Assembly (NCBI GenBank): GCA_008632985.1
Contig: QPGO01000025.1
Coordinates: forward strand, 310,001-374,000
Source: Psammoneis japonica
Lineage: Eukaryota
DNA: 64,000 nucleotides
Direction: 5' to 3'
Position numbers and translations under genes: made by a program. Every line of letters begins with the position of its first letter. The stretch's first letter is position 1. Below are positions 6,002 to 55,520 of the stretch, piece after piece. A model generated the notes under the pieces. That model was not told the origin of the DNA. It did not search any database and was given only the letters and a program-made list of their open reading frames with translations.

Positions 6002-6203
6002 TGTGATTTGATTGCAGCCATTCTGCTGTTGTAACAATCAAAGGGCTAAGAAAATTGTGTGTTAAAATAGAATGTGAACTTTTAAAGTGCGCAGTTGGTC
6101 TCTTGTCGGAAGCAAGTGCGTCAGCAAAGAATCTGGCTCTTGAATCAAGTTCAAGGACTAGGACAGTTCGCCTGTCTGTCCGTTTGACCCTAGATTCATC
6201 ACA
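6002..6203 (-). repeat. 3' LTR of the Copia element
   Basis: Direct repeat of 11786-11987 with 6 mismatched bases and TG...CA termini. Confidence 0.95.
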
Positions 6204-6236
6204 CTCCCTCTCAAGAGCCAATGCAGCGTTGTTTCC

Positions 6237-9200
6237 TTGCCAACCAAGTGTGAACTTTCGATGCCGAACGAGCAACTCTAGTGACAAAGGCTTGGTCAAG
6301 CAATCTGCAGGCTGAGCCTCGGTGTCAATTTTCACCATCTCAATCTGTCCGCTCTGGACATGTGACCGGAAGTGGTGCAACTTGACATTGAGATGCTTTG
6401 TGCGAGGTCGGCACTTGTGGACTCGCGCCATCTCTGGCACACCGCTGTTGTCCTCGAACACTCTGCAATGGATCTTGGGTTCCGCTCGATCGATCGGAAA
6501 ACCCTCTGCTTTCAATTCTTTCAGCATCTCCATCAAAGGGATCGCCTCTTGCAGGGCATGGCTCAGTCCCGTGTGTTCGCTCTCAGTTGAAGAGAGACAC
6601 ATTTCTCCCTGCAACTGGGATTTCCACGTGACCGGACATCCACCGCACATAATGACACATCCATGTCTGGACCTTGCAGTGTCTGGATTCGAAGTGTCAC
6701 TCTTGTCGAAGTTCCCCGCAAAATCCGCATCCACATAAACCTCGAGTTCCTTGGACTTGGTTGGCCGCATGACAATTCCTTTGTCCCTCGTTCCCATGAG
6801 ATGCCTGCCCAACCACCTGATTGCCTTACCGTGCTCGACTTTTGGAGCTGCTGTGAACCTCGCGCACTGGTGAATTGTGCATGAACAGTCGCTTCGGGTG
6901 CCACGCTCCAAGCAACTCAATTTTCCAATCATGCTCCGGCAGTCGAAGCTGTTGTCAAAGTCTTCTGAGTCTTGGTGTCAACCCAAAATCACGGATGATG
7001 CAGCTGGAGTGTCTTTCGTCTTGGTGTTCTTCTGGAAGTTCAGTTGCTCCAGAATTTGATCCGCTTTCCTGTCAATGTTCACCCCAAGAAAATCTTGAAT
7101 GTCGCCTTCCTCCGTTGTGTTTAGGTCTGCGCTTCGCACATCTTTCACGACTTGATCAAGCTCCTTTTTATCTGGACCAGCAAGCAAAGAATCATCCGTG
7201 TAGAGGACGCACATGCACTTTCCTCGGAAGAAGACGCACTCATCATATTTCGACTGCTTGAAGCCGAGCTTGTTGACAAGTTTGTCCACGAGATAGTCGT
7301 TCCATGCTCGGCCAGCTTGTTTCTGACCGCATGCATTTCGATGGAGTTCGAGCACATAGTCCTCCGAGTTGCCATCTTCTACCTCGAATCCCTTGGGAAT
7401 TTTCATGCAGATCTCTTGCTCGACTGGGGCCTGCAGAAACGCCAGCACGTAATCGAGTTGCTTGGTGTGCCAATTGTTCATGGCCGAGAGAATTGGCAGC
7501 ATTCGGATCGAGCTCCACGAGGCCACAGGTGCACATGTCCTGTCCGGATCGTAGTGAATTGACTTTTTCATCCTTGACCCGTCGATGTTGAGCCTCGCCT
7601 TGTACTTTTTGACTTTTCTCGTCTTGATGTCGCGTTTCCGCTTCATTTGCCACACTGCAGGCAATGCTGTGGCATCCTTGGGGATCTCGGAAATGTGTCT
7701 CACCGAGAAGTTTCGGTTCCCGATCTGATCTTGGAATTCTTTTTCCATCGCCTTGACGAACTCCTTCGCATCTTTTTCCTTCATCGCTTCGTGGTGGTGC
7801 ATGGCATCTGGGTCCGCCGTCGACTTGCAGGCATGCAAGGGATCTTCTTCGGACAATTCTTGTTGAGGACAGAGAGATTCGAATCCGAAGATCTCTCCCT
7901 CCATCTCTCCAGTGCATTCTTCAGCTCTCGCTGGCGACTCGGCGGCATGTCTTGGGTTCGGTCTACTGACACGTCCCGATCTGGTCGTCACCAGAGGCAC
8001 GTCGCGTTGCGCTGCGTCTCGTTGTTGTGCTGGAGCTTCCACGTTAGTAGCGCGCTGTGGGTCTGCCTCCTGAGCACTGGTTGGGAGGTTGCTGTCCTCC
8101 CTCTGAGTTGGCGATTCGTTCTCGCCTTGTGTTCCATTCAAGCTCGACCCATCAGGCTCTTGGTCTGTTGGTCGGCTGTCGTCGGCACTCAACCACATGG
8201 GTTGTTCCCTAGAGGATTTTCGTTTTCTCCTCTTCTTGTGGCTCTTCTTGTTCGTGAGCCTCACGCTGTTTTCGCGTTTTCTGTTGTTGGGGGTCTCGGA
8301 TGCTCCGTCAGCCTGGCCATCGGCTGGTGGATCTTCAAAGCCTGCTTTGACCTTCCATCCGATCTTCCAGCGCTCTTGTTGCGCCATGTGAAAACTCGGG
8401 TCGAATCTTACATGGAATTGTGGGCTCACTCGTCCTGTTTCGATGTCGAGGACAAGTGCTGCATTTTGGCAGTGCACTGGCGATTGGCCAAGGTAAATTC
8501 CCACGTTGGACCTTTGCTTCCACTTGTTGAAAATGTTTCCCGTCTGAAGTGCTTCTTCTAGCACCGCCACAGGACACCCAAAAGGGTGACAGTGTTTTGA
8601 GTTTACATCCACTGCGGATGAAGTGAACAGCTGGCATGCGCTTCGGCTCGCTGGATCTTTCGGTGGTGGCGTCTCGTTCAGCGCTTGATTTGCCATTCGC
8701 AATGCGTGCGGCCAGAGGTGAGGCGAGATGGCTTGTGGCCACCTCTTGTTCGCGTGAATCAATTGCGTTCTCGCCAGGTCTTGCAGATCTCGCATTTTCT
8801 TCTCTGCAATTCCATTTTGATGATGCGCATTCACTCCGGCAAAGGCAAGTCCCTGCCTTTGTTCTCGAACTGCGTTCACCCATGCCTTCGCCTTGAAAAC
8901 ACCGTTGTCGGCATGACAGTGTCGGATTTTGATTCCACTTTCTTCTGCATGCTGCTCAAATGCTCTCTTCCCTCTCAACGTCTCTTCAGCAGAGCTCGTT
9001 TGCTGGAGGTGTGCGCATCCGCAGCCTGTGGCTTGGTCAACGCACACAGTCGCGTGGTTGTAGCGGTTTTTGGTGAGTGTCCCCGTGTTCTGTGCTGCTG
9101 GTCCAGGTGTGCTCGAGACCAGCATGTCGACTGACACGACTTGTCCCGGTCTCGTAGGTGCAATTTTGTTCCTGCTCTTTTCGGTCCTTGGTCTCCATGG

Positions 9201-10110
9201 GCGCTTTGTTTGCTTCCCACAAAGGCATGCCGAGCAGACTGGGACTGGGCACTTGGCCAGCGTGGGATCGATGAGCCTCATTTTCGCCATCTGTTGCAGG
9301 CGCTTGAATGACATGTGACTGAATTTGTGATGCAGCTTCAGCAGTTTGGTGGTTTTTGTTTCTTCACCTCCATCTTGTCTGTCTTCCTCATCTGGAACAA
9401 CTGCCACCGGACTGTCTTCATCCTTCTCCCCTTGCAGATCAAATTCGGTCTGCCGTGGGGCGGCCCAGTCGATGGGTTGGGCCGCGGTGTCCAATGAGTG
9501 TAGACCTGCTTTTTGAAGGTGGGATTCTGAGAGCGTTTCGTCGTCAGCCTCGTCATCGCCAACAAGGTGAGCTTCAGAATCGTGTGCAATTGTAGGATCG
9601 TCCTCGTCGTTCGCTGAAATTTTTGCCTCTTGACAGAAAGCATCACATTTGGAGCAGCCGGGAGCCAGGGCGAACGTGGCGACGTTTGATTTCGTTTTGT
9701 CGATCGGTGTGGTTAGCTTGTGCGAATGTTGGCTCCAATGCAAAACCGTTGCGCAATGGTTGGTGGTCTCCCCTGTCCCGCCAACTGCGTCTTTTTGAGA
9801 TTGCGCCCAGTGTTGTGGACTGGGCAGTCGCGCATCCTCGTCCGTGGGTGCGTAGAACGAGTTGGGGATGCGAAACTTGTGTCGTTTTCCAGTGTCGTCT
9901 GACCAGTTCCATGCGATTGTGCCAATCATAACTCCTTTCGTTCGTGTTCCTCCGAAACCCTTGATGCAGCGATTCGATTGTCACAACGGGCCTTCGAAAT
10001 CTTCGATGAACGAAGAAATGCATCCGGAACAGTGATTGTCAACGCCGACCGGGCCTCCATCAGTGTCGAAAACGACGTCATTCGTGCATGCTGGGCAGGT
10101 CTGAGCTTTG
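6237..10110 (-). pseudogene. Copia pol: protease-like region, integrase, RT and RNase H, frameshifted
   Basis: Motifs: VFDTDGGPVGVDNHCSGCIS (protease region), HHKFSH...CPVPVCSAC (GAG-pre-integrase), VSVD/HADNG/QNGIAE (DDE integrase), KARLNIDG, GQKQAGR and YTDD (RT), YVDADFAG, LSSTESE, FEDN and ADCLTKPL (RNase H). ORFs 6978..9929 and 5988..6932. Confidence 0.93.
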
Positions 10111-10478
10111 AATGCCAAAGCCGTGCACGCGGTCCACACATTGCGAATGCCTCGTGCCAAGTTCCATCGAGTGCACTTACGGCGTCGACACTTCACGATT
10201 GCTCCCTCTAGGGAGCGAATCCGTGCTCGCATGGCTTGTGCCTCTTTCCCGTTCGGGCTGCTCTCCCCCGTCCACATGGGATTGATGAGTTTTCAGCGCT
10301 GTTGGGATCGATCTCGGCATTCATGACGACTCTTGTTCCCAGATTTTCATCGGTTCATCGGATTGGGCCGGATTGGTGAAAGGCAGGCTAGAATGTACAG
10401 CAATGGCGACCAGATCGTCTTGTGGGACTTGTGGGCTGCTCCTGTCAATCGCCTCCTCCACGTGGGTGACGTTGACAG

Positions 10479-11740
10479 TCATTCCGCATCCGAAGATGAA
10501 TCGTCTCCGCCGTTCTTGATCGCTTCCATAGCTTGTGAAATGCGGACGGTGTTCTTCGTCGTGCCGCGCTGCTCGTTGTCTTCTTCATCCCTCTTGGGAA
10601 TGAATCCGAGACCTTTGCAATCCTTGGGATGGTGAATTCGCCACTTTCCACCACATTTTCCTCCAGTGATCTTGTCACACCAATGGCGCGGCTTGCCTTT
10701 CCACATGACGGGGATCTTTTCTTTACCCTTCGCCGGTGGTTTGGCAGGACCCTTCTCCCTGCGACACCTTTTCGAGGGCTCGCGTCGTTTCTTCTTGTGA
10801 GCCTTTTTCTTTTTCTCAAGGCTCGCAATCTTGGCTGACAGAGCAATGATCTGCTCCTCTTGAGGATCGGGAGCATTCCATTCTCCATTTTCCTTCATCA
10901 TCTTGAAGCGCTCGTTTGCCACATTCATGATGTCTTCAGGAGTCATGTCTTGTCCCTCATCATGCTGCTCCTTCTTCCTGCCAATGCAGTCAACGAACTT
11001 CTTGTCCGATGCGTTGGCATGTCCCTTGAAGAGGTTTGCCAACAAGTCTTCTGCAGTCTCCCCTCGCGCGGCAAGCGCCTTCGTCATCATGAGTGCATGC
11101 TGATTGAATTTTGTGATGTCCGAGTTGATCGTGTGAACACACTTGTCCAGTGATGACAACTTGGATCTGATGCTGGACGTTTTCGCATTCGAATCGAGAT
11201 GGCTCTCGCGAATGATGACCTTGAGGAGCAGACACGCAGATGGACGTTTCTGTTGGATGGGATCTCCTTCCCTTGGCTGGAGCATGTGCTCCTTCTTGTG
11301 CATCAAGATCTTGTTTGGTGCCTGGGTGTCGAGACTCGCCATCAGACACGAACAGAACATGTGATTGTCCTGTGTCGCACGTCCTTCTTCGAAGAGGCAA
11401 GCTCTCTCGTGTTGCTCAATTTGTTCCACAGTGAGCTGTCCGCAGTTGTCCACCAGATGAGCACGATCACTGTCTTGCTCTTCGGGGTTCAAGTCGACCA
11501 GCAGAATGGACAATTCATGCTCATCGTTGTTCCATCCGCAATCGCCCGCACGTTCATCAATTGCCTCCAGAAACGAGAACAAACTCTCTGGCGTGCAATC
11601 GAACAACTTTTCACTGAGTTTGTACGTCGCTCTTTCGTAGAGCTTCCTTCCGGATGTTCTCCAACAGTCGATTGCGCCGGTCATGGCGCCTGCTGGCGTG
11701 AATGCAAATGGGACATCCTCTCCAGCAGCTGATGCGCTGC
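10479..11740 (-). CDS. Copia gag
   Basis: ORF 10479..11825 lies directly downstream of the 5' LTR and has a C-terminal WCDKITGGKCGGKWRIHHPKDC zinc-knuckle-like motif. The true start is uncertain. Confidence 0.8.
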
Positions 11741-11785
11741 TGTCAGAATCCGCCGTGGTGCAATCAGCTTGTCGCAGAGGAAGCG

Positions 11786-11987
11786 TGTGATTTGATTGTA
11801 GCTGTTCTGCTGTTGTAACAATCAAAGGGCTAAGAAAATTGTGTGTTAAAATAGAATGTGAACTTTTAAAGTGCGCAGTTGGTCTCTTGTCGGAAGTAAG
11901 TGCGTCAGTAAAGAATCTAGCTCTTGAATCAAGTTCAAGGACTAGGACAGTTCGCCTGTCTGTCCGTTTGACCCTAGATTCATCACA
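11786..11987 (-). repeat. 5' LTR of the Copia element
   Basis: Direct repeat of 6002-6203, located upstream of gag. Confidence 0.95.
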
Positions 11988-33194: not shown

Positions 33195-33570
33195 ACACAG
33201 CATAGAGTACAAAAGTCTACATACTAGGGGCGCAGGGTAAATCCTTGGGGCAGGAGACAAGCTTTCATACGTAAGAGTAGTCTAGTTCGAAATTCTTCTA
33301 TCTGCTCTCTCTAGCTAGCTCTCTACTACTCTACTCTCTAGAGTAGAGAGTAGAGAGTAGGGCCCTACAGTACAGTACTTCTATCTTTTTCCAGATCTGC
33401 GAAGCACGTCGTCGCGTCCTTCCATCTACCGCCGTGATCGCGTGTCTCGCGCGTCTTCTGCATCTCCGTCTCAAGTTTGGAGGTTTGAGATTTCCGATTT
33501 TCATGCACCCAGCACTACGGTATGACGGAAATCTGAAATTGTCTCTCAGTTTCGCTTCCATCTGTCCACG

Positions 33571-36500: not shown

Positions 36501-36821
36501 GTGAATGCACTTTGGCGGGTATCCGATGAAACAACTCAGGCGATTGAACGCGCCAATGTTCCGAAGATTGCAAAGTCGCGAGGCAAAAGCTCTGAAATGA
36601 CCAATTCAAAGATCACATCCCAGAAGTCGGAGCTTACGACAATTGTTTGTGCGCACTGTTATCGAAAATTCGAGTCTCGCGCTCTTGCAGAAGAACACGA
36701 AAGGACCAACTGTCCTCGCAACCCGGCGAACCTAAACGCCGTGGACATGTATCATTTGTCGTCTGTGTATCGCAGCATTCGTCCTCCGCCTCCAATGTCA
36801 GTAGTTGCGAGGCAAGATTAG
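33571..36821 (+). CDS. SNF2-family helicase/ATPase, with three apparent frameshifts
   Basis: GGILGDAPGLGKT, TLIVVP, RLIVDEGH, RRWVLSGTP and SHGLDLSFVTHIFLLEP...EQV.SRAHRLG spread over four ORFs. Frameshifts near 34140, 35070 (T homopolymer) and 35640. Confidence 0.82.
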
Positions 36822-39337: not shown

Positions 39338-40270
39338 CTATATGGTTGGTCTTGATTGGCGGACGGAAAAGGTACATGCGCACACTACTGTTCTGGCAAC
39401 GGCTTTGGGGGATACTTGCTAGAGTCTAGAGGAGAAGCTGAGAGGACTTCAATGCCAAAGTACCATACAAATACACGGGGACACGGCAGCTACATCGCGA
39501 TAATAGGGGACGATGTTAATGACTAACACTCACAAATACTTCGCATTCTTATTCAATACTTCAATAGCACTCTAACTTTGAGGCTCTCTCTCTCTCCCTT
39601 CACCGTGTTCCCGTTCGTAGCAATCATTGTTCTTTGCTACCTCTTGCGTTGGAACGGTCATTCTTCCTCCGTGCACTAGAGTCGATCGTGAGCATGGCTG
39701 CTCTGACCACGTTATTTGGTGTTGTGCTTCTGTTCTTCAAAAAGGTTTTGTACTGCACCGTAAATCAATGATACCTGTAGTGAAGATCAACGTCGGAAAA
39801 GACGGCTTTGGCCAAGGGCCGCCTCTAGTATCGAGTATATAATACACCAACCGCCTATCTCTAAGGTTCCATGTAAAACGAATGCCTCCAATGTCTTCTT
39901 CTGTCCTTGTCGCAAAACATGAATACGTGCAACATGTACCGGTATACTCTTTTCTTCTTTCTTCTCCTTGCTAATTTGTGAATATGGTACTTCCGTCTTT
40001 ACGTTCCTTGCTCCTAACGAATATAGTCCTTCGTCTACGTCTATTGCCAATCCCTAGATCATTTTGTCTCTCATTCCCTGCTCCAGTTGTCTTTGCTTGG
40101 ATTACCGTGGCCGCACGTCTCCGCAACAATAAGATAGCCGATTGACGCAGTTTTGCCCTGTCAAACACGGCACACAGTGGTGTCAAACACCCTCATGGCG
40201 ATACCATCCTACTCGAGCTTCTGGGCGGGAGAGGATTGGATGATGAGTCGTCGCACTTCTGGAGATGGAC

Positions 40271-41410
40271 GTGGGGGTGGGGACGCTGTACGGCGTTTCC
40301 ATCCTCGTGACTCAGCGTCCCCACGCATCGTCCCCACGTGGGGACGCCGTACGGCCCTACTGTACTGTACGGCGTTTCCTCGTGGCTCAGCGTCCCCACG
40401 CATCGTCCGTCCCCACGTGGGGACGCCGTATGGCCCTAGGGCCCACTGTACAGTACGCACGGCGTTTCCTCGTGGCTCAGCGTCCCCACGTGTGGACGGC
40501 CGGCGTCCCCACTTGGGGACGCCGTACGGCCCTGCTGTACGGCGTTTCCTCGTTGCTCAGCGTCCCCACGCGTGGGGACGGCCGTCGTCCCCACGTGGGG
40601 ACGCCGTATGGCCATAGGGCCCACTGTACGGCGTTTCCTCGTGGCTCAGCGTCCCCACGTGGGGACGGCCGGCGTTACTGTACGGCGTTTCCTCGTTGCT
40701 CAGCGTCCCCACGCGTGGGGACTGCCGTCGTCCCCACGTGGGGACGCAGTGCGGCCATACAGCACTGTACGGCGTTTCCTCGTGGCTCCGCGTCCCCACG
40801 CATCGTCCCCACGTGGGGACGGACGCCGTGCGGCCCTGCTGTACGGCGTTTCCTCGTGGCTCAGCGTCCCCACGCATCGTCCCCAGGTGGGGAAGGCCGT
40901 CCCCACGTGGGGACGCCGTACGGCCCTACTGTACGGCGTTTCGTACGCGCGGCGTTTCCTGCTCGTGGCTCAGCCAGCGTCGCGTCCCCACGCGTGGGGA
41001 CGGCGTCCGAACGAATCGTCCCCACCCCCAGGCAGGGCGGGTCCCCACGGCCCTAGACTATGTACAGTACGGCGTTTCCTCGTGGCTCAGCGTCCCCACA
41101 CGCGTGGGGACGGCGTCCCCACGAATCGTCCCCACGTGGGGACGGCCGTCCCCACGTGGAAACGCCGTATATATACGGCCTTACAGTTCTTGCTTACAGT
41201 ACTGTATGTACGGCGTTTCCTCGTGGCTCAGCGTCCCCACGCCGTCCCCACGTACGATATGTGGGGACGGCCTGCAGCACGGCGTTTCCTGCGCTGTGCG
41301 GCGTTTCCTCGTGGCTCAGCGTCCCCACGCACGTCCCAACACGTCCCTGGGGACGCCGTACGGCCCTTCAGCACGGCGTATCCCGCCCTGTAGCTCAGCG
41401 TCCCGCGGGA
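40271..41410. repeat. GC-rich irregular tandem array of palindromic modules
   Basis: About 14 copies of CGGCGTTTCC(TCGTGGCTCAGCGTCCCCACG) interleaved with the perfect palindrome GTCCCCACGTGGGGAC and with CCGTACGG. Confidence 0.95.
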
Positions 41411-41900
41411 ACCACCACTCCAGCCAACTGGGAGGCACTACAAAAACGAGAAATTCTACGCAGAATTTGCCTAGCCACCATGGCGAATTCGCGTCGCGTC
41501 CACCGTCGATGTCACCGTTTTCCACGAGGTGACTCACGCGGGACATTGTCGTTATTTGTCTATACAGTGGCACCATAACGTGTTGGCTCGATTTTGACAA
41601 GTGCCACTCTGCACTCTGCGCAAGAAAATCGATTTCGATTCGTGTGAGTCTGCTGCTGCTGTTGTCGTCGTTCCGGTGTGTTTCGTCGAGTTTGTTATTA
41701 TTTCCCTCCTCTCATCCCTTGACCTTTGCCTCATTCGTTTCATAATAAATGTGGGTAAAGGTCGCGGATGTGTGGGGCACCTTTGGAGTGTTTGAGACGA
41801 GCTCTGGACGTCGCGGCTCGTGGTTGGTGTGTTTCCAACAGACGTTAGCGGTCCGGCACTTATTCTGTTTGTTTCTCGGTCCACAAGCAGATTCTTCCCC
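41400..41900 (+). mobile_element. Repeat-family segment adjoining the array; a decayed homologue lies at ~43710-43950 plus ~48510-48690
   Basis: Shared sequences include cagaatt.gc..agccaccat.gc.aatt.gc, gattttgacaagtgcc, gcaagaaaatcgattt and tttgag.c.agctctgga.gtcgcggctc. Confidence 0.65.
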
Positions 41901-43229: not shown

Positions 43230-43700
43230 GATGTGCACTGGTGCAAAAATCACAGAGGAGATTCATGTAGATAAATCTTGAAAAATGGGGTTTGGGGCCG
43301 GCCAAATTTTTTGCGTGCTTCCCCGTGCTTCTCCGCTTGGCGACAAACCCTCAAGGAATCATTTTCTCAAAACACCATTGACACTTTGCATCATTGCTTT
43401 CATGTGAGGAACACGATTTGGTGCATCTTGTGCCCAAAATTCCATTTTCAGAATTGTGTTGTCACTTCAGCAGTGATGCAGTGTGGTAGAAATTTTTCAA
43501 ACATGGAATTTCATCATCAAAAGCAAGTGCACAAAGTGTCAACCATCATGACTGAAATCAATTCCTTGAGGTCATGGCCTGTCATTCACAAAGCACAGGA
43601 AAAGCATGACAAACAAGATTTCCTGTGTGATTTTCTGCATGAGCTTTGTGTGAGAAATTGGCCCAAACCAAAAATTTCAAGCTCACAACCCCTGCACATG
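43230..43700 (+). repeat. Dispersed repeat with a second copy at ~56085-56570
   Basis: Shared gtgcactgg..caaaa, gggtttggg.cc, actgaaat..attccttgaggtcatggcctgt and agaaattggcccaaacc. Confidence 0.7.
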
Positions 43701-43950
43701 GCCTGCAATTCTGCGTCCCCATGCGTGGGGACAGTGTCCCCGTGCAGAATTCGCACAGCCACCATTGCAAATTTGCATTGTGTCTGCCATCGTTGTCACT
43801 GTTTTTCACAAGGTAAGTCACTCAGGATGTTGTCGTCATTTGTCTGTTGCGCCATTGCGTGTTTGGCTTGATTTTGACAAGTGCCGCTCCATGCAAGAAA
43901 ATCGATTTTGACTCCTTTGGCATGCAAGTCTGCTGCTGTTGTTGCCCATG

Positions 43951-46900
43951 TGCAGTGTGCGACTGTTATATACATATTTATGATTATATGTTATTTATAT
44001 GTCAATCGTACCACAGTCGTGGATGCGTGCAAAGGACAGAACGATCACACAGAGTTGATCGGATGTCGAGAATTGCAAATACGATCGATTGACGATGTTG
44101 ACATCTTACGTGTCAATAGCAATCGTATCCGGACAATCTGTTGTCACGAATATATTCTCCGAAAGGCCTTTTGTCTGTAGAAGCAGCACAGAAGCTTTAG
44201 GCCATTGAGAACTCGTTCGGAGAAACCAAAAATCACAGAGCAAAATTTAATCTCATAATTTCCACTTTTCGTACACTATTCTACTTTCGTTTACACTCGT
44301 TCTTCGAGCATAGTGCATTGTGTATACACACCACAGAAGGTAAAAAGCACGGAAAATGAAAATTTTAACTAATGTGCCTTTGCAAATTCTTCTGTGAACA
44401 GGAACGAATCGCATCAGTTCTGCTGGAATCGATTTCCGAGCGGAAGAAGCTCAAGCCGAGCAGCACCTCAAGATGGAACGCTGTTTTTCGTCTACCAGAC
44501 AAGAGGATTCGCTCTAATACGGTCTATTCCAAGCACCCAAGGATCAAGGGCTCTCAAGCACACCGCATTGTCAAAAAATCTACACCAAGTCATGGTTGCA
44601 GAGAATGCAAGTTCCGAGTCGATCAGATCCGAGAAATGCGTCTACCATGCAAGGAGAGACTGTTGGAGAGTTTTTTGAGACCGAATCGATGATCCTCGAG
44701 TCCAAGAGCAAGATGGAACCGTTGGAAAGTACCTCAAGAGTCTCACATCTCATGTCTTTCCAAGAATTGCACTTCAGAATCAGAGTTGTCATTTTCAAGA
44801 CGATCTGAAGAAACCAGAGCTGCTTGACAGCAAGAAAGCCTCTGTTAGACCCAAGAGGTCAATGATGAGAGTCTGTGCGACCCTCAGATGGATTCTAAGT
44901 CGAATCTAGCGGGAAACCGAGCGCTGATTTATCAGCTGTCACTCGCACCGCAAGGATGGCAGCATCAGCCTACTGTCCAAAACATTGAACTACTGGATCA
45001 TGCCCTTGACGAGCTGATTGAGGTTTGAGTCGTCTAGAGGTCGGCGAGGACGTCTGTGACAAAAAAACACATCAATTCAGGCTCTGATAGCGCAGTTGAT
45101 TCCACAATCAAAAAGGTTCCAATTTTGGTTCCAAAAATGGTCTCCTGTGTGGTGCCACCACAATCCAAAGTGAATGAAAGGTCCAATCTTTGAAAAAAGA
45201 ATACCCACATCACGGATTAAAGCCATTCTGAAAATGAACCAGCGAAAGAGTGCAAGGGTGGCTCTAAAAGAGACCCAAAAATACGACGCTCTAAATGGCA
45301 ATCGCACGCGAACGTGACGAGAGCAGAAATGCCTCTGTGAAAGAGGAGTTGAACTGAACTATGAACTGGGCAGTTCACAAAAACAATTAAAGCGAGTTCC
45401 TCGACAAAGGAACGTAAAAATAAGAGCGAAAATTAAGACTCTAAAACGCTTAACAAATGAAACTATCAATTTAGAAAAATTGACCTGATCGAGTCCGATC
45501 AAAAATTTAAACCGCTCAAGGAGTGTAACGCATTACAGGACGTCTGGAAACCCAGAAAAAGCATCACAGCATGTCACACGAGTCCTGTTCTCGCTGTCTA
45601 TATGACTGCTTCTCTGAGAAAAGAAAAAAATAAGCTTCTGCGTGTTCTCTCGATAAAGAACATCGTCAGCCCATGATTTTACGCAAAATCGTGCGAAGGT
45701 TGAGAACCAAAATATCCGCCACCAAAAAAACTTGAGAAACCAAGGGTGAGCTCTTTACGACTGACAGCAAACACCGAATTCAGTTCTCACTACGCGAATT
45801 TAAGACTTGCTGACATTCAAACAGCATGTGTCAATGACACCAAACACCCTTCAAGGTCGAATGATGTGATCATGGGACGCGACTTAATGTCCAGTCCTGC
45901 AAGTCACATTGGACTACGCAAATGAAGAAATCTAATGGGAAGAAGCAATTACCTTATGAAGAATGTTCATACACTCTTCGATGCCGATGTTTTCAAGCTG
46001 AAAACCGATCACATGAAAAATGTGACGCCGTGAATAGAGTCAACAACGGAACCAATGGTCCTCGACTCACATTGTCACGCCATCGATCCTAATCAAGTGA
46101 CAACTACGGCGATGCATCTAACCCAAATGAACACAACCAACTCAATCTTCTTCTTAAGAGGTTGAAATCTTTTTGAAAAGTTCCTCAGACGAATGCATGG
46201 GAAGAACCAGTGGATCTCATCGTGGAAAATCTGACGCGATTCCACGACGCGTGAGAACCTTCTCCTATCATAGTCTTTGGAGGCGTCCAATCAAAAGGAA
46301 TTTGACCTATTATGAAAGATTGAAGTTTTAAAAATGAAATTGCGATTCAATCATGGAACACCACGATGTAAAATCAAAAAGCACACGTCGTGCTCACATC
46401 AGAATAATGCCGTGGGGGAAAATGAGTGCTATAGACTTCCGATGAGAATCTATAGAGCCCCATATATTTTCATACAACGCATGAGCGAACTCATGGCAGG
46501 TTTGGAGTTGTCAGAACGACTAAGAATGAACATTTGCACCTGACAGAAAATAACTTCAAAATGTCACCTGTACAAGAAAAACTTGAAACGGCATTCATAC
46601 GACTAGAACAGTCGCTTTGAAGGTTAACAAACAAAAGTCCTTCACTACTTAACTTGAAAAAAATTATCAAGACTTCCATGCGTAACGGCACACATCCGAT
46701 TACAAAGAAAATGGAGGCGATTCAAGCAATCGCAACACGAGAAAAACGTAAAGAACACTACGACATCTCGTTGTCATACGTTGCTATTATCGAGACATGT
46801 AGTCTCAACGATCTCCTGTACAATACTAGCCAAATTCACCTCAATAAAGGTCAAACGGCAAAAGTACAAGTACGGAACGAAAAGTCTCGGAAAATATGGA

Positions 46901-48506
46901 GCGTATCAAATCAAAAACTATATTGTTATCATACACGGATTTCAATATTATACGTTACAACGGAAAAAAGAACTTCTGTCCATAGTGAAAACACTTATAA
47001 AATTCCGAAATATACTGTTTGGCCAACAGATTTATACATATACGGATCATAAGACACAACGGACAAAGTCATACGTTGACAACTTCAGTCCCGAATTAGA
47101 ATACAACGAGGGCAAGGCGAACATCGTCGCGATAGACGCGATCAGCCGACTTACTATAGAAAATTGAATCCTACGACAATGTCCTACCGTTAAAACGGGA
47201 TAAAGACATTCCCTCCAAATTGTCGGACGCGACATATCATACGAACACTTTTCGTGGAGGCGAGCGAGATCGAAAAATGCTCATGTCACAAGGATAAAAT
47301 CGCCTTTTTAAAGGACGATTTAGGAAAAAACAGTGACAGATTGGTATACATTATACGTATCCACTTCACACTGGCAAAAGACAATCTCACAACACCCGTA
47401 CGGTTGTATTGTACAATGTACGAGGCAAGACATTAAAATATACATCATGTCGACACACGAGATGTGCCAAAGATCTAGAAAAAGAAAAGAAAAATGGACA
47501 TTTATCCACTTAGTGCACGAAACCAGTGCCTTCGGAATGACAAAATAACACCGGTATGTCAGAAAGAAACGTCCAAATAACGATTAAAATCCAACTGATA
47601 GATGGTTGAAGTACAAAAAAAAAAAATCCATAATGGAATTCATAACCATCACAGGATTGATTATCAAGACGAAATGGTCATAATATCTTTGACCATCGTT
47701 TATTATTACTTATGAAACGTGGTAGTGCAGCAGAGCAATATGGCATATAAAGTAAGCCCGCCAAACTACATGAAATCCACAAGTAAGTAAGTGAACGCCA
47801 TAATTAAGAGCGTACATTAAGTACTGGGCACGATGCTATGTACAATCGATATCAGGAAAAACACTTACTCCAGGACAATTAGTCCTTGTGTTCATATCAA
47901 CAAGAACGTCAATGAGAATACTCGACGTAATACTATATATATACATATTAAGTGAGAAACAAACAATGTCACTCTCAAAAGACATTCGGAAATTGGAACG
48001 GCCCTATATTGCCTATACAAAACAACAACAGTCATTGCTAATGGCACAATACAGTGAAAGTGGAGACATTATTGACACTGTCGATGTCCGTCGAATAATC
48101 CACTTACAAATGACTCTAATGTGCAATTAGGGAGGCGAATGCAGTATGCGACTGTTATATACATATTTATGATTATATATTATTTATATGTCAATCGTAC
48201 CACAGTCGTGGATGCGTACAAAGGACAGAACGATCACACAGAGTTGATCGGATGTCGAGAATTGCAAATACGATCGATTGACGATGTTGACATCTTACGT
48301 GTCAATAGCAATCGTATCCGGACAATCTGTTGTCACGAATATATTCTCCGAAAGGCCTTTTGTCTGTAGAAGCAGCACAGAAGCTTTGGGCCATTGAGAA
48401 CTCGTTCGGAGAAACCAAAAATCACAGAGCAAAATTTAATCTCACAATTTCCACTTTTCGTGCACTGTTCTACTTTCGTTTACACTCGTTCTTCGAGCAT
48501 AGTGCA
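43951..48506 (+). mobile_element. Ty3/Gypsy LTR retrotransposon, non-autonomous (internally decayed)
   Basis: 367-bp LTRs at 43951-44317 and 48140-48506 (TG...CA), 4-bp TSD CATG and PPT AGGGAGGCGAA. Internal remnants DVIMGRDLM (~45863), FRNILFGQQIYTYTDHK and LEYNEGKANIVA.DAISRL (Gypsy RNase H). Confidence 0.92.
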
Positions 48507-48699
48507 CATGCCTCATTTGCTTTGCAATGAGTGCAGCTAGAAGGCACTGATGTGTGGGACACCCTTGGCACATTTGAGGCAAGCTCTGGATGTCGCGGCT
48601 CACAGCTGTTGTGTTTTGGAGTTTCCCATGGACACCGTTGGTCCAGCACTTCTTTGTTCCGCTTGTTTCTTGGTTGCACACAGGTTCTTCCCTGCAAAG

Positions 48700-51600
48700 C
48701 AGCCTCATGCTTTGGTTTTGAACATGTTGATGCATGATGCAAAAGAACTGGATTTTGTGGAGGTTGTCTCAGGGAAACACAGTTGGGAGCTCAATGAGCT
48801 GCAACTGCAATGCAGGGTTGCACTTTTGGTTAGATTTTTCAATTGTCAAGAGCACCACACCCATTGCTTGGGAGGTCGTTCTCAGCAATGCTGAATCATG
48901 AAAGACAATTCTTGCAATTGGATTGTTGTGGGACCTTGCATGGGAGGCAAGTCCTTCATGATTCACTTCATGCTTTCACAACCAGCTCATGAGTCACAGA
49001 GTTGCACTTTCATGGGGGCGGTTCATGATGGCTCTCTTCACAGTCAAGATGAGAGAACCTTCTAGTCATTTGAATGCACGGTCCTTTGTCTGTGCAGGAA
49101 ACACCCTGCACTCTGTGAGCAAGCTTGTTGGCAGTCAGGATCACATGGCGGATGGTGGCGATGCTCATGTTTGACCTTTGACCTTTTGACCTTGTGTGCT
49201 GTGCATGGGTCACAGGAACTTCAACCTCAGTTTAGTCCAATGGGTCAAAAGCATGGTTTTTCATGCCAGGCACTTGGTTTGTCCCTTGCTCTGCAACCCA
49301 CAAACAGCAGTCTCTCAAACAACACCTTTGCAGTCAACTTTGATTCTGTCAAACCCTTCAGTTGCATGCCACAGTTTTAGACCAATTGACCATCAACCCA
49401 AACTGCCAGACACCATTGGTTGTCACACAGCTGGCAGGGCTTGCACTCTGTTGGCCCAAAAGCACAATGATGAGAGTGTGGCCTTTTTGTTGCCGGGGGG
49501 CAGCTGCTGCACCACTGGAGTTGTCAACACACACCTGCGTTTGTTGCTCTTTGAACCCAAAGGATGTTTCCACTGTGTGAAGCTGGCAAGCACCCTCTTT
49601 TTGGAAGTCCAAACATTTTTGTTGTTAGAGCAAGGTGTCTTTTCTCTCATGCACCACCCCGAGCACTCTTGCAAATGTGCTGCTTGACTTTGCCATCAGC
49701 ACTGCTGTGCTCCTCTGTGGCAGTGGTCTCAGCAGGCCCGAGAATGGAGCTTGGGAAGCTCTTGCTGCTTGTGATTCAGAGGTTGGGACTCAAATCTCTC
49801 AAATCCCTCAAATCCTGTGCCAAAACAATTGCTTCAGTGCTGGGTGGCATCCTCTCCCATGGTTGCCATGATCATCTGTGTGGCAGGCATCTCTGCTGAC
49901 TGGCTGGCCCTCATGCTCTTCTTTGGGTGTTAAAAGCTTGTGACTGGTGCACATGCCGCCTTCTTTTTTGGCCCTCTCTTGGCATGTTTCCTTGCTTTCT
50001 TTTGCAGCCAATGCCAGCAGCACAAGCAGCAAGCTTTTGCAAAACCCACAAGCCTTTCTGCTGGAATCTCTTTTGCACTTCCTTCCAGCCAGCTCATCCA
50101 GCATTGGTCATCTGCTTCTTCTTCTTCTTCCAGGGCTTCTCATGTGGTTCCCACCTTTGGTGCCTCCATTTTGCCCTTCAAGGATGTCTTGGGTGGCTCA
50201 GCTTCTTTTCACCCCACTCCTTGCTGCAATTGTGGCTTTTTTTGTTGCTGGCAGGGGCACCCAGCAGCTTTCTTTTTCTCTTGCCAAAAATCTGGCAAGA
50301 GAGGCACAAGACCTTTGCTCTTGCCCTCTTGTTCCTCTGTCATGGGGGGGGGTGGGGGGCATGTCTCAGCAGAATGGCAGCCCTGCTGTGCTTGGTGCCT
50401 GCAGTGTTTTTTCTTCTCTTGTGCTCCAATCTGCAGAGCCCATGCACAGACCTGTGCCAGAGCATCTGTGTGGCACCAAGGGGGGTCCCACAGTGAGCAC
50501 CTCATGCTGCTTCAGCTCCGAGGACCACACACTTTTTTTTTTCACCACATGAAAAGAGCTGTGAAAATCAGAGTTTGTTTCAAAAGCAAATTGAGTTGTT
50601 TGGAGTCAGCACGATGAGATCTTTGATTCTGAAGTGTGACAAGAAGTTGGATTGCATGCACAAACAGAAATGTTTTTGGCTGTGTGTTGCAGATCTCAAG
50701 CAGGCCTGCAAGGTCCATGCAGCCCAGTTTGCCACCAGTGACTGTCAGAGTTGAGCATGCATTGCCCCTGCCCCCGCCCCCCTTTGGCCCCTTTGGAAAG
50801 CATGTGTGGGTCCATCTTTGTCTTTCCTGGGTGCATGGCACAAAAAAGCAAAAAAGCAAGCAGAGGCAGTGTGTGGTCCAAAAGCATGCCTGCAGTGCTT
50901 TCCAAAGCTCTGGTGTGTGACTTGCAAAATCACTGCAAATTCTGTGCAAATGGCTTCTGTTGGGAAATGCACACCAAACCCAGTCTGATGATGGCAAATT
51001 TGTCATTGAAAACTTTGACGCTGGCAAAAGAATCACTTGGAGACAAAATGAGCAGCACTTTCCTTGCCCAGCTTGCTTTTTCAAGACAAGTTGGTTGGCA
51101 AAGGGATGTCTGCTGAAGCCCCATTTTCCCACGTTGTGTCACACAAACAACACGCTGACAGTTCAGAAATTGAAGCTTTTGAAAATGCACCAAAAAAGCC
51201 ATCACCACCACTCAAATTTTCATGAAAAAGCAAGCAAGCAAAGTCCCTTTGTTTTGTCATGATTTTAGAGATTCCTTTGTTGACTGTCAGAGCAAGTCTG
51301 AGAGTTGCATGGGAGAGGTGTGACATGCAACAACTTTCTTCAGCAGACTTTGGATGATTTCTGGGGGTGAAGTGTTGGAGCTCATGTGCCACTCTCTCTC
51401 AGATGCTGTGGATCCCAGCAGCAGCTGTGGCTGGAAATGCCCAAAAAGAATTGTGCCATGCTCCAGCATCTGGTGGAACAAGTGAGCAGCAACAAAGGTG
51501 TTGCAGATGACAGCTTGCACGCAAACTTTCAGCCACAAAGGCAAAACTTGAGTCCACACAGCGGGGAACAATGCAAGCATCTCCAAAATCCAAATGTCAT

Positions 51601-53260
51601 GAGAAGGACTTGTTGCACAAAATGCTTGAAAGTGAAACACAGTGTGCCCACAAGAGCCAGCTGTCATTGCCAGGGTGCAAGAGCTCTTGCTGGCTGCTGG
51701 GATTTCATGGTTTGCCGGCTGGCACATGCTCAGTCTTGCCAATCCCCACACTCACCAAATGGATTGCAAGCACACATTTCTGTTGCCCCGCTGCTGCTGT
51801 CACCATGTCAACTGGGTGCACAAGCAAAAAAGTGAGCACAAGAGACACAATTTGACAGGAGCTCTAAATGCAAATTCACCACATCATCTCAACAATCATC
51901 GTTGCATCCTTTGCTGCAATGTTGTCTGTCTGTCCCATGAAAACCACCTTGTGCCACAATGTTCCAACACACTTCATTGCATGAGCCACAAATTGCAAAT
52001 TGACTGGCCTCATGTGTGCCAACCAGGAGGGCAACACTTGGAAACCATGACACCCAGCACCACTTCAACTGCTCTGCCAACTCCTGCCATTGCACCTGCA
52101 TCATCTGACTCTGCTGACAAATGACCATCATCATCATTGAGCAAAGGACAGCCCTTTTTCACATGCCCAACCTTGCCACATTTCAAGCATTTGATCTGCT
52201 TTTCTCATTTTGTGCAAAGCTTGTGCTCTCAGGTTTCTTGTTAGACCAGCATGTGTCCAACACCTGCAGCACCTCCTCAGCCAAATTGGAGCAATTGCAA
52301 GCAAAGAGCACAAACTGCCAGTGCTGGTCTTTCAAGATGTGCTGTCAATCCTTGGTGCCTTCCATTGGCAGCACTGCCAACAACTTGTTTCTTTTGTTCT
52401 TCCAGGTGTCATGTCAGCATCCTTGCCAAACCCATCTTCTTTCTTGACAATTTCTTCCAGGATGAGTCTGCCATGGGACCTTTCTGCCATCTCAACAATG
52501 CTCATGAGCCAACTGCAATGATTTTGAAGTGCCCCTCCCTCATCTCCTGATGAATGAGTGCCAGCTGCTTTCAAGCCTCAACTGCCTGGGCATGTGAGCA
52601 GATTCCCTCATTTGCATCAAGCAAGATTGACTTGAGATTTTCCAACAACAGTGCTGCCACATCCCACTCCTTTGTGACTCTCTCAAACTCTGTCACTCCT
52701 TTGACCTCATGACAGACAGCCTTCGTGCACTGTCCCATGATTGTGCCAAATGCATTTGCCTTCTGTGTCTTGTAGATTGCACCCTGTTTCATGTGGCGAT
52801 CTCATTGCTTCTCCCAGATTGCCTTGTCCTTCTCCAATGCAGCGTCACGTGTCACCCAATGGATGCTCCAGCTCCTCCAGTTTGTTCTCCTGCCTCAGAG
52901 ACATGGGTGCCTGAATCTCCAGCCTGAAAGTTCTTCCAAGACACTCACTTGTTTTCTCATTGTCTCTGTGTGACACCACCTGCCTGTCAATCCAACTCTG
53001 CAATGGCATCATGTGCCAACTCCTTCAAATCTTTCATGCTTCCACACTCAGTTGCATCCTTGCCCATGTTTCCGGTCAACACAACCTTGCCATGCCCTCT
53101 TTCAGCAGACCCTTGAGAGCTTCCTTGCAACAAGCCCCCCTCCCGAGTTTGTCTCTTTGCCTTCATCCAGCCAGATTGTTTGCCACAATCTGCTGACATG
53201 AGCTGCACCTTTGGACTCTTCTTGATGACTTCCCAGTCCACATTTTTACCTTTTTTGTTG
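48700..53260 (-). mobile_element. Old, heavily mutated Copia-like relic
   Basis: Gag-like ANAFGTIMGQCTKAV...VTKEWDVAALL at 52571-52792 and a faint RT-like segment (ETSFGFK...VCVDN) near 49550. No LTRs were recognised. Confidence 0.45.
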
Positions 53261-54109
53261 GGATTTCATGGCCCAATAAAAACATGACTGCCCATGCCAC
53301 AATTCATGACAGAGAAGGTGTGTGGCCCACAGCATGCTGCACTCAATGGCCAGCATCTTGAAATGTTTGGCAACACACCTGCTGCTCTGCAGCAACACTT
53401 TCTTGCAAAGGAACAGTCACAGAAAATCCCTTCATCCTGGCACAAGCTCCAGTGCCAGCCATCACCATCAAGTTGAAGCAAAAGCATCTTTTGCCATTTT
53501 TGCTCCTGCACATCCTTCTTCATGAAGAAATTTTCAGGGAGCTGGGAGACTCTGGCCATCTCAGGTGTCTCTCTTTTCTCTCTTTTTTGCTCTGGGTGCT
53601 TTTAAATCTGTCATTGTCTCATTTTGCACAAGCAGGCAAGCACCACAACAGGTAAGATGCCATCTCTTTCAAGCTTCTGTTGCAGTGTTCAATCAAAGCA
53701 GGCTGCCTTGCTTTTCCCTGCTGCGCCCTCATGTGTCATCAAAGTCACTCACTGCCCTGCTTGGTCTCTCTGCACATCTGGAAAACATTGTGGCTCTTGT
53801 TGTTCAGAGCTCATTTGTGCTGAACAAAAGAACCCCAGGTTCTTGGCAAGTGCTTGTCAATTGTGAACAAAGCAAATTTGACAATTGTTTTTACACTCCA
53901 AGTGAGAAAATGTGCTCAAGAATCTGCAGGTCTCATTGCTCATTTGATCTTGACAAGATCACAGCCACAATGATTTTGACACAACTTGGTTCATGTCCAC
54001 AACCAAACAAACATGTGAAGCAGGAAATGACAACTGATGAAACTTGTGACTTGCAATTGATTGTTCTTGACAAGGGTGCAATTGTGGCTCCTTTCTGACA
54101 CTGTGCAGC

Positions 54110-55520
54110 ATGCATGCAGACAAAAGGTTATTTTGTCACGCCCTTTGTGACATTTGAAGGCTGTGGCACGTCGCCGTGATGCATCAACTCTCATCAGCAG
54201 CTGGTGCGTGATGGCTTGATTCGCACGATCCACAATGCGAACGCACGATCGATCCAATGCGATCCAAATGCAAGCGAATGGGGATTTGGCAAGATTTCCT
54301 GTTCGCACGATCCCATTTTCTCTGCTCTAAACTGGCCCACAATTTTCACAACGACAAAGTCGCAACACATCTTCTTTTTCAGCGCCTGGCACATGCGTGG
54401 GGCACAGTGATGTTGCTGTGCCCTGTGTGTGCGCTGGGCGCTGAAAAAGAAGATGTGTTGCGACTTTGTCGTTGTGAAAATTGTGAGCCAGTTTAGAGCA
54501 GAGAAAATGGGATCGTGCGAACAGGAAATCTTGCCAAATCCCCATTCGCTTGCNATTTGGATCGCATTGGGTCGATCGTGCGTTCGCATTGTGGATCGTG
54601 CGAATCAGGCCATCACGCGCCATGCTGCATTTAAAGGCTGCAACACGTCGCCGTGATGCACCAACTCTCACCAGTGGCTGTGTGTTGCACTCCTCCCCAT
54701 GCACCACGCGTCCATGCAGCTCTTTGCTGACGTGCACTGACACTGCATGGTTTTGGCGGAACAGTGTGGGTGCGTGCGAAGGAACACACAGAACTGCACA
54801 GAGTTTTGCGCGCATGCAAAGGGCGTGACAAAACAACCTTTTGTCTGCATGCACACTGCGTTGTGAATTCACAGCGGAGTGGTTCATCTCGCAACCACCA
54901 GGCAGGAGGCCAGGGGTTCGAAACCCTGAGTGGGAGTTGTCTGCAGCAACGTTGATCACTGTCGAACGCGCAAAACTCTGTGCAGTTCTGTGTGTTCCTT
55001 CGCATGCACCCACACTGTTCCGCCAAAACCGTGCAGTGTCAGCACACGTTAGTAAAGAGCCGCATGGACGCGTGACACATGGGGAGGAGTGCAACACACA
55101 GCTGCCAACAAGAGCCAATGTATCACGGCGACGTGTTGCAGCCTTTAAATGTCACAAAGGGCGTGACAAAAACAACCTTTTGTCTGCATGCATGCTGCAC
55201 TGTGAATTCACAGCGGAGTGGTTCATCGCAACCATCAGGCAGGAGGCCAGGGGTTCGAAACCCTGAGTGGGAGTTGTCTGCAGCAACGTTGATCACTGTC
55301 GAACGCGCAAAACTCTGTGCAGTTCTGTGTGTTCCTTCGCACGCACCCACACTGTTCCGCCAAAACCGTGCAGTGTCAGCACACGTTAGTAAAGAGCCGC
55401 ATGGACGCGTGACACATGGGGAGGAGTGCAACACACAGCTGCTGATGAGAGCCAATGCATCACGGCGACGTGTTGCAGCCTTTAAATGTCACAAAGGGCA
55501 CGACAAAACAACCTTTTGTC
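54110..55520. repeat. Nested inverted and tandem repeat complex: spacerless ~420-bp palindrome (54202-54622), second inverted repeat (~54628-54812 vs ~54967-55152) and ~338-bp tandem units
   Basis: The arms are reverse complements around 54411/54412. caaagggc..gacaaaa recurs at ~54817, 55155 and 55493. One N at 54554. Confidence 0.9.

Follow-up and report, generated by a model that had tools for sequence, protein, structure and literature searches.

Comparison of the two long terminal repeats (LTRs) of a retrotransposon inserted at 43951-48506 of the window, by which we mean the whole 64-kb stretch of DNA analyzed, reveals a rare DNA mutation process directed at the dinucleotide TA. An ungapped alignment of the LTRs (offset 4189) has 7 mismatches over 367 positions (98.09% identity), and homology ends exactly at 43950/43951 and 44317/44318 (48506/48507 in the right copy). 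An earlier note on this DNA had claimed that all seven differences oppose TA to TG or CA, and the alignment confirms it: 7/7 are transitions of this type, six of TA versus TG and one of TA versus CA. At 43957, 43990, and 44029, TG in the left LTR faces TA in the right; at 44199/48388, 44273/48462, and 44278/48467, TA in the left faces TG in the right, and at 44256/48445 it faces CA. The derived bases thus lie exactly where that note had placed them, and their perfectly sorted order, from left LTR to right, is real. With such a change possible at 105 of the 367 LTR positions, random transitions would give 7/7 with P ~1.6e-4. The process hit 7 of the 58 TA sites in both LTRs (29 per LTR); six of the seven changes are A->G on the sense strand of the element, too few to call a strand bias.

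The anatomy of the element is established by its LTRs, target-site duplication, and polypurine tract (Table 1). The LTRs are direct repeats with the outer motif TGCAG...GTGCA, and the derived bases occupy LTR positions 7, 40, and 79 in the 5' copy and 249, 306, 323, and 328 in the 3' copy. A version of the insertion site without the element still exists: one 236-nt contig of run X1, with 0 other letters, connects 43946 with 48507, and four letters at the joint fit both sides, consistent with the CATG duplication. The sole protein evidence for a Ty3/gypsy-like origin is an RNase H remnant (PF17917 RT_RNaseH; E 4.9e-5; 23.9 bits, versus a cut-off of 24.8; residues 102-134 of the ORF at 46658-47167). 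Among the 19 forward ORFs of the interior, this single sub-threshold match was accompanied by no Pfam hit to reverse transcriptase (RT), protease, integrase, or gag, and the pol domain order RT - RNase H - integrase was not found. Given this lone sub-threshold match, the Ty3/gypsy-like superfamily label is tentative, and the copy is non-autonomous or degenerate. No TGG-type primer-binding site is recognizable downstream of 44317, a protein search with a 97-residue ORF spanning the three 5' sites returned no match, and Rfam gave 0 matches within the window. The family is very abundant (4,038 contigs of run X1 were aligned, with shared variants making up 70-95% of depth). Metagenome scans for words taken from the LTRs turned up no loci carrying other copies.

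Table 1. Features of the retrotransposon, its flanks, and the Copia-type element used for comparison (positions in the window).
Feature	Position	Strand	Evidence or remark
Left target-site duplication copy, 4-bp CATG	43947..43950		Identical 4 bases at 48507-48510
5' LTR, 367 bp, TG...CA termini	43951..44317	+	Derived TG at 43957, 43990, 44029
Interior, 3822 bp, intact gag/pol absent	44318..48139	+	Pfam scan and composition
RT-associated RNase H domain remnant	46961..47059	+	PF17917 RT_RNaseH
Polypurine tract AGGGAGGCGAA adjoining 3' LTR	48129..48139	+	Read from sequence
3' LTR, 367 bp	48140..48506	+	Derived TG at 48388, 48462, 48467; derived CA at 48445
Right target-site duplication copy, CATG	48507..48510		Matches left copy; empty-site contig
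Left flank, old DNA, TA exhausted, CG-poor	43300..43946		0-1 TA per 200 bp
Right flank, old DNA, TA and CG exhausted	48511..49500		0-2 TA per 200 bp
Copia-type LTR element	6002..11987	-	RVT_2 E 3.7e-38
Copia LTRs, 202 bp	6002-6203 and 11786-11987	-	Differ in 6 columns

The LTR differences involve TA only, and the change removes it. TA as the ancestral state and TG/CA as the derived one, the polarity proposed in the earlier note, are supported by family contigs that carry TA, by the TA-poor old DNA, and by double differences of CA versus TG. Record 16 of X3, an independent family contig with a different variant at 44187-88, has TA at all four 3' sites, and records 10 and 14 of X2 show 0 differences from the TA states. 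The three 5' sites are polarized on weaker evidence than the four 3' sites: record 14 of X2 could derive from this same element, and record 20 of X4 allows G at no more than one of them. At 13 of the 31 element rows, among those listed, this copy has TA and 70-95% of family depth has TG or CA. Of the 8 pairs of repeats that were compared, 6 show double differences of CA versus TG, among them the pair of Copia LTRs, and such doubles require a TA or CG ancestor. None of the seven derived sites is found among the 40 listed of 430 other-letter rows for family contigs, which come from a run that lacks 32% of the stretch's sampled words and may lack this insertion.

Dinucleotide composition across the window carries the same signature. 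Old DNA has a TA observed/expected ratio (o/e) of 0.05-0.07, TG/CA o/e of ~1.8, and CG o/e of 0.2-0.37, the last falling to 0.05-0.15 in most 1-kb segments of 49-64 kb. Across sequence classes, TA o/e declines from 0.57 to 0.05 while TG/CA climb to ~1.8, and the summed o/e of TA, CG, TG, and CA stays at 3.7-4.1 in 8 of 9 classes (4.43 in the right half of the element interior, which is rich in both TA and CG). The bodies of the Copia and LINE elements have lost TA (o/e 0.13-0.17) and kept CG (0.82-0.90). The value of 0.57 belongs to the gene region, where host genes look diatom-like; a 181-bp tandem pair in this TA-normal region has an ordinary spectrum, with TA-type changes at 1 of 6 differences (one pair only). 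The interior of the element was said to keep TA, which holds for the part named, at ~46.7-48.1 kb, and fails for the left half: the right half is TA-rich (o/e 0.85), whereas 44318-46300 is TA-poor (o/e 0.39).

These observations are consistent with a degenerate, high-copy LTR retrotransposon, probably mobilized in trans, that would have inserted recently into ancient repeat DNA. The host genome may carry a TpA-directed transition process, changing A to G on either strand and so TA to TG or CA, that would have wiped nearly all TA from old repeats, with CpG decay trailing more slowly. That the two LTRs differ indicates that the hits came after integration, probably in patches (four changes close together in the 3' LTR, three more loosely spaced in the 5' LTR), and an enzyme is the likely agent. 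An origin during reverse transcription or RNA editing was rejected, because the standard model would make such changes common to both LTRs; hot spots set by site context were rejected as well, since they would strike both LTRs alike. We give an even chance to the reading that a young Ty3/gypsy-like insertion was hit by patchy TpA-directed editing and that the outer placement of the changes reflects the chance of few events.

So far, a single 2026 preprint on a chlorarachniophyte is the only report of A->G hypermutation that is specific to TpA and strikes foreign DNA. In Bigelowiella natans, Mettrop et al. (bioRxiv 10.64898/2026.01.13.699255) describe TpA->TpG/CpA hypermutation in the integrated DNA of giant viruses and virophages, and they tentatively propose as its cause an adenosine deaminase that works on DNA. 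The changes there are nearly exclusively A->G/T->C and occur only at TpA, the product being TpG or CpA according to strand; the long-term mark is TpA depletion with a gain of CpA/TpG, and reverse transcriptase and DDE domains are overrepresented among TpA-poor coding sequences. The window resembles this system in both spectrum and long-term mark: all Gypsy (7/7) and Copia (6/6) difference columns are A->G/T->C transitions, and the Gypsy changes are restricted to TpA (7/7), with TA lost rather than gained. It departs from B. natans in that the host genes are diatom-like rather than chlorarachniophyte, the targets are retrotransposons of the LTR and LINE types together with old repeats, CpG exhaustion accompanies the TA loss, and depletion goes much further, with TA o/e at ~0.05 over tens of kb, compared with the Rho of 0.45 given for the viral region. 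The words spread, boundary, LTR, retrotransposon, and diatom are absent from the main text of the preprint.

Three other known processes share some of these features. Like fungal RIP, the process riddles repeated or foreign DNA with dinucleotide-specific transitions; RIP, however, turns CpA into TpA (C->T) and would create TA, whereas here TpA is destroyed. RIP was rejected on this opposite direction, so the view that the process is unlike RIP stands. There is also no sign of a duplication trigger in the LTRs, whose central 170 bp and inner parts are without change. The TG/CA excess in old repeats resembles what 5-methylcytosine deamination at CpG leaves in methylated transposons, and such decay forms a second, slower layer here, but 0/7 Gypsy and 0/6 Copia differences fall at CpG and the Copia and LINE bodies keep CG. 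APOBEC/ADAR-type editing of retroelements precedes integration, acting on cDNA or RNA, and both LTRs inherit identical changes. In this element, the two LTRs differ, and the target is A in TpA, not C. A likeness to such editing lies in the deaminase-type, context-specific, clustered transitions in LTR retrotransposons (for example, Knisbacher and Levanon, PMC4866542).

The placement of the seven changes, with the derived bases toward the outer ends of the LTRs, had been read as mutagenesis spreading in cis from the mutated flanks. The corresponding explanation is that the TA-editing state of the old, exhausted flanks (silent chromatin or its mark) reaches a little way into the new insertion, and editing would then begin in the outer 80-120 bp of each LTR. 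Mutated TA sites do lie nearer the outer edges, at a median distance of 45 bp versus 203 bp for unmutated sites (logistic slope on distance P=0.0017; Mann-Whitney P=0.014). Summing the distances to those edges gives P=0.0007 (one-sided), and complete separation, with three left-derived and then four right-derived sites among 29 TA sites, gives P=0.018 (one-sided) or P=0.036 (two-sided). Every one of these tests is post hoc, since the same seven sites both suggested and tested the hypothesis. Split by LTR, the changes affect 4/8 outer versus 0/21 inner TA sites on the right (P=0.003) and 3/14 outer versus 0/15 inner on the left (P=0.10). In addition, both flanks of the element are TA-exhausted, and TA counts drop gradually across ~400 bp at 42.9-43.4 kb. 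Leakage into neighboring sequence can occur with RIP and offers a precedent for an effect in cis. The B. natans preprint reports a hypermutable zone extending ~21 kb past the viral annotation, the large region being transcriptionally silent (bioRxiv 10.64898/2026.01.13.699255).

The pattern nevertheless lacks a front. Of the TA sites in the right LTR, the three closest to the flank (LTR positions 332, 342, and 361; 35, 25, and 6 bp away) are intact, and the left LTR keeps 11 of its 14 outer ones; the TA-poor left and TA-rich right halves of the interior do not form a symmetric two-sided gradient. All four changes of the 3' LTR fall within one 80-bp patch (P=0.004 for 4 of 29 sites falling inside 5 consecutive sites), and the three in the 5' LTR are loosely grouped, with no tight clustering. 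The statistics therefore rest mainly on one 80-bp cluster, and the effective number of events may be ~2. One point against chance placement is that, with the sites taken as independent, the outer bias is unlikely to arise that way (P 0.0007 to 0.036).

The Copia-type element offers the second of the only two LTR pairs in the window. Its LTR differences are of the TA-derived type in 6/6 columns, including one CA<>TG double. The left LTR, beside TA-free DNA, has lost 5 of 12 TA sites, in two runs that fit patchy editing, and the LTR beside TA-containing DNA has lost 1 of 12, as spread from the flanks would predict. Within its LTRs, however, edge clustering is absent (P=0.63; distance regression P=0.86), and the single change in the right LTR sits at the inner end. 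A pooled Gypsy and Copia regression (P=0.0019) is confounded by element and was not relied on. Seven changes are too few to show an inward creep from neighboring DNA. Spread in cis from the mutated flanks, as the earlier note had proposed it, is not established: a front is missing, the signal comes from one cluster, the Copia pair does not repeat it, and rival models fit equally well. We consider flank spread unlikely.

The outer LTR segments can also be described by transcription. The 5' LTR U3 and the 3' LTR U5 are the sole parts of the element outside the transcript, and both are outer segments, so that editing could strike silent DNA and spare the transcribed part of an active element, or repair could restore that part. 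Over both LTRs, 7/22 outer and 0/36 inner TA sites are mutated. A TATA-rich stretch at LTR positions 17-50 suggests that U3 could be only ~50-80 bp, although the site at LTR positions 78-79 may then already lie in R. The large hypermutable region of B. natans is transcriptionally silent according to the preprint (bioRxiv 10.64898/2026.01.13.699255). Against this, the Copia changes fall in would-be transcribed parts, although that element may be long silent, and the idea is itself post hoc; we regard it as very unlikely. The broader proposition, that a TpA-directed DNA-editing defense in a diatom-like alga goes to completion on repeats, that its territory is set in cis, and that a fresh insertion is edited first in LTR segments continuous with silent, exhausted flanks, or equivalently in untranscribed ones, appears doubtful to us. 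If it is true, LTR pairs would keep a base-by-base record of how a mutator bound to chromatin advances.

A mosaic origin would place the outer changes in older sequence. An older edited copy or solo LTR could have been partly replaced by a younger copy, through cDNA-mediated or ectopic gene conversion or a crossover, leaving old sequence only in the outer LTR parts; one switch point per LTR (between positions 79 and 248) would account for the perfectly sorted pattern. The family is abundant and has lineages differing at TA sites (4,038 X1 contigs; variants at 70-95% of depth), and the greater age would go unrecorded in the flanks because they have no TA left to lose. One X1 contig fits the left LTR to 44040 and the right LTR from 48389 and may be a divergent copy; as an LTR with both derived ends, this joint (1 contig) is too ambiguous to count. 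Against the mosaic, two events would have to coincide at the same polymorphic site, old and new parts are not set apart by any non-TA marker, and the empty site with its precise 4-bp duplication is in keeping with one ordinary integration. We find such a history quite unlikely.

It is highly improbable, finally, that the differences are an assembly or polishing artefact, in which reads of other copies corrected LTR parts unanchored by unique flank and the true LTRs are identical. The family is very abundant, the switch points lie ~80-120 bp from the unique flanks, a short-read length scale, and the outer variants are without independent read support (in a run lacking 32% of the stretch's sampled words). 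However, CA is kept by both LTRs at 44187-88, a place where T makes up 89% of family depth, and they retain TA at LTR positions 167-168 and 176-177, where 70-72% of depth has TG/CA; the interior also departs from the family majority at many sites. Simple majority polishing was rejected because the inner LTR parts keep minority variants.

Patchy editing after insertion remains our preferred reading, and the element offers a way to study it. A young insertion with a surviving empty site, whose LTRs differ only by the TA process, provides a natural clock for the rate of that process and a natural ruler for where it acts, be it by distance from the flank, by transcription unit, or in patches. Whichever rule holds would tell how the mutator is targeted, a point that the B. 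natans preprint leaves open. In genomes of this kind, LTR-divergence dating and repeat annotation will suffer from severe bias if TA sites are left unmasked. Our literature search, which covered diatom transposon papers by word, found no report of the process in diatoms or on retrotransposons. The window carries the same signature in a diatom-like genome, on LTR and LINE elements and with near-complete loss of TA, which suggests that the process is older or more widespread than one lineage.

The two LTRs of the Gypsy-like element differ at seven of 367 positions, and all seven differences are transitions between TA and TG or CA. With 105 of the 367 positions able to give such a change, a spectrum made up entirely of TA-type differences has P ~1.6e-4. 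The coordinates of these differences and their sorted left/right order had been proposed in an earlier note from the sequence alone, and both are correct. First principles rule out an origin in reverse transcription or RNA editing, since a single template is copied into both LTRs.

The direction of change was evaluated from composition, repeat pairs and other copies of the element. For the window overall, the observed/expected ratio (o/e) is 0.30 for TA and 1.44 for TG/CA; in old DNA (1-6 kb, 14-17 kb and 49-64 kb) the values are 0.05-0.07 and 1.5-1.9, respectively, with CG at 0.20-0.37. The summed o/e of TA, CG, TG and CA is steady at ~3.8-4.0, in line with a conversion of TA and CG into TG and CA. 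Double differences, with CA in one copy and TG in the other, are present in six of the eight repeat pairs compared; each requires that TA or CG was ancestral and decayed separately in the two copies. Contigs of a public run with the same organism label were aligned to the element locus in four sets (X1 to X4). Record 16 of X3 (247 nt, 44062-44308) has TA at all four 3' sites and differs only at 44187-88, so it represents another copy. TA is again the hub state at 44187-88, where the window copy has CA and the others TG or TA. Records 10 and 14 of X2 show no differences from the TA states. The contigs of X4 together contain a single A>G place, which limits record 20 of that set to at most one G among the three 5' sites. 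In 13 of the 31 variant rows listed for the element, the window copy has TA and 70-95% of the family depth has TG or CA; the reverse pattern (TG or CA here, TA in the family) occurs in four. These four lines of evidence (composition, CA/TG doubles, family contigs and variant rows) confirm the polarity of TA loss suggested earlier, and point to TA as the ancestral state at the LTR differences.

Features of the window and the states at the LTR differences
Feature	Position	Strand	Details
LTR retrotransposon (Gypsy-like)	43951-48506	+	4,556 bp
LTRs of the Gypsy-like element	43951-44317 / 48140-48506	+	367 bp each; TG start, CA end
Target duplication	both sides of the Gypsy-like element		CATG, 4 bp
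Polypurine tract	just before 3' LTR of the Gypsy-like element		AGGGAGGCGAA
LTR differences	43957, 43990, 44029		TG in left LTR, TA in right LTR
LTR differences	48388, 48462, 48467		TG in right LTR, TA in left LTR
LTR difference	48445		CA in right LTR, TA in left LTR
Copia LTR pair	6002-6203 / 11786-11987		only other LTR pair in window; CA/TG doubles: 1
Four repeat pairs	54-55.5 kb		CA/TG doubles: 2, 3, 4, 6
Old 1.85-kb tandem	2.1-5.1 kb		CA/TG doubles: 31
SNF2 helicase gene	34.1-35.2 kb		best named match Attheya, 57% identity (best 120 matches)
Hydrolase ORF, Abhydrolase_3 lactone-hydrolase-like	31.9-33.2 kb		closest: 'Chaeto...' MMETSP transcript, 51% identity

Each Gypsy-like LTR has 29 TA sites, and the median distance to the outer edge is 45 bp for mutated sites versus 203 bp for unmutated sites. 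The summed distance to the outer edges (P=0.0007, one-sided), the full separation of left-derived and right-derived sites (P=0.018 one-sided, 0.036 two-sided) and outer-edge distance itself (logistic slope P=0.0017; Mann-Whitney P=0.014) were evaluated with tests that were devised after the pattern was seen and that assume site independence. The edge signal comes mainly from a single patch in the right LTR, where four of five consecutive TA sites are changed within 80 bp (clustering P=0.004) and TA loss is 0/21 for inner versus 4/8 for outer sites (P=0.003); taken alone, the left LTR gives no significant effect (3/14 for outer versus 0/15 for inner sites, P=0.10). If editing is patchy, the changes count effectively as about two events, and it is unremarkable that these fall in the outer thirds. 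The proposed advance of mutagenesis inward from both flanks is not established. Changed sites do concentrate towards the outer edges, but there is no front: in the right LTR, the three TA sites closest to the flank (positions 332, 342 and 361) are intact, and in the left LTR so are 11 of the 14 in its outer 78 bp. The interior, TA-poor on the left and TA-rich on the right, likewise has no symmetric two-sided gradient. Spreading in cis from the flanks is a hypothesis beyond what seven sites can carry, and we consider it unlikely; true positional targeting of any kind, cis-spreading included, is slightly less improbable but still doubtful.

The same picture would arise from the transcription unit if editing acted on silent DNA or if transcribed DNA were repaired. 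The outer segments (5' LTR U3 and 3' LTR U5) would be the only parts missing from the element's own transcript, and U3 could be short given the TATA-rich stretch at LTR positions 17-50. A crossover or gene conversion between a younger copy and an older one that was resident and edited would also partition the sites in this way, a single switch per LTR being the expected trace of such a mosaic. A polishing artefact, in which the outer parts are true because they are anchored in unique flanks and the inner parts are borrowed from other copies, is disfavoured: minority variants are retained in the inner parts of both LTRs, although the outer variants are without independent read support.

The Copia LTRs provide a comparison within the window, and all six of their difference columns are TA-derived. 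Edge clustering was not found in these LTRs (P=0.63; slope P=0.86), and the single change in the right LTR is at its inner end. TA was lost at 5/12 sites in the LTR adjoining TA-free DNA versus 1/12 in the LTR adjoining TA-containing DNA, an asymmetry that does show the direction predicted by cis-spreading; the pair is an unclean test because its own interior is TA-poor. The Copia pol ORF (6978-9980, - strand, 1000 codons; RVT_2 match, E 3.7e-38) persists in a body with 0-5 TA per 200 bp; either the active lineage evolved TA avoidance or selection filtered the editing. Long ORFs are weak evidence in TA-poor DNA, since without TA there is no TAA or TAG.

No second copy of the Gypsy-like element was found in the window. 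Comparison of 19 forward ORFs from its 3.8-kb interior with Pfam revealed no intact gene, and the sole match was a sub-threshold RT_RNaseH (23.9 bits versus a cut-off of 24.8). Thus, the label "Gypsy" is tentative, and this copy must be non-autonomous or degenerate. TA o/e in the interior (44318-48139) is 0.39 in the left half versus 0.85 in the right half, where CG o/e is 1.30; this imbalance was probably mostly inherited from the source copy. The left half also has three listed sites (44790, 45206 and 45240) at which the window has CA and 72-80% of the family depth has TA.

One X1 contig (236 nt, no other letters) links 43946 straight to 48507, with the four letters of the duplication common to both sides; therefore, element-free DNA exists in the run with the same organism label. 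This run may represent another haplotype or strain, given that 32% of the words sampled from the stretch are missing from it and that the only X1 contig across the right flank (48685-49100) has eight differences from the window. The seven that are listed are all transitions, so differences between haplotypes or strains in old DNA obey the same dinucleotide rules; they are mostly of the TA/CG versus TG/CA kinds and include TG/CG, TG/TA and one CCA/TTG triple. The element family is highly abundant: 4,038 contigs were placed, and the summed depth, not to be read as a copy number, exceeds that of the flanks by two to three orders of magnitude.

Decay in this genome is two-stage, with TA loss much faster than CpG loss, because Copia and LINE bodies (6204-11785 and 19000-27000) are TA-depleted (o/e 0.13-0.17) yet keep CG at 0.82-0.90, and the oldest DNA (49001-64000) has lost both (TA 0.05, CG 0.20). 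At 54119-55520, direct and inverted repeats (D2, I1-I6) form a nest; their copies differ largely by CA/TG doubles and by CG versus TG/CA, and the single N of the window (54554) adjoins an arm of inverted repeat I3. A GC-rich island at 40100-41600 (64% GC), made of 60-90-nt repeats with the palindrome GTCCCCACGTGGGGAC, has normal TA (o/e 1.13) and CG (o/e 1.14) and differs conspicuously from all its surroundings.

The host-gene region (31899-36821), with near-normal TA (o/e 0.57), is separated by about 7-10 kb from repeats that are fully exhausted. Among named relatives, diatoms are the nearest to its genes, at 51-57% identity; for SNF2, all ten matches with organism names that precede the first non-diatom are diatoms (best 120 matches).

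A 2026 preprint on Bigelowiella natans reports that two integrated viral regions mutate ~1000-fold faster than the remaining genome in mutation-accumulation lines, almost only by A->G/T->C changes restricted to TpA; it also describes an enrichment of reverse-transcriptase and DDE domains among TpA-poor coding sequences and proposes an ADAT2-like deaminase as the enzyme (bioRxiv 10.64898/2026.01.13.699255). The words spread, boundary, LTR, retrotransposon and diatom are absent from its main text. The same signature is present in the window, whereas the organism differs, and a literature search that included diatom transposon papers found no report of a TpA process in diatoms. The TA-directed process in the window is real and striking: previously known only from one preprint on a distant lineage, it now appears in a diatom-like genome, on retrotransposons.
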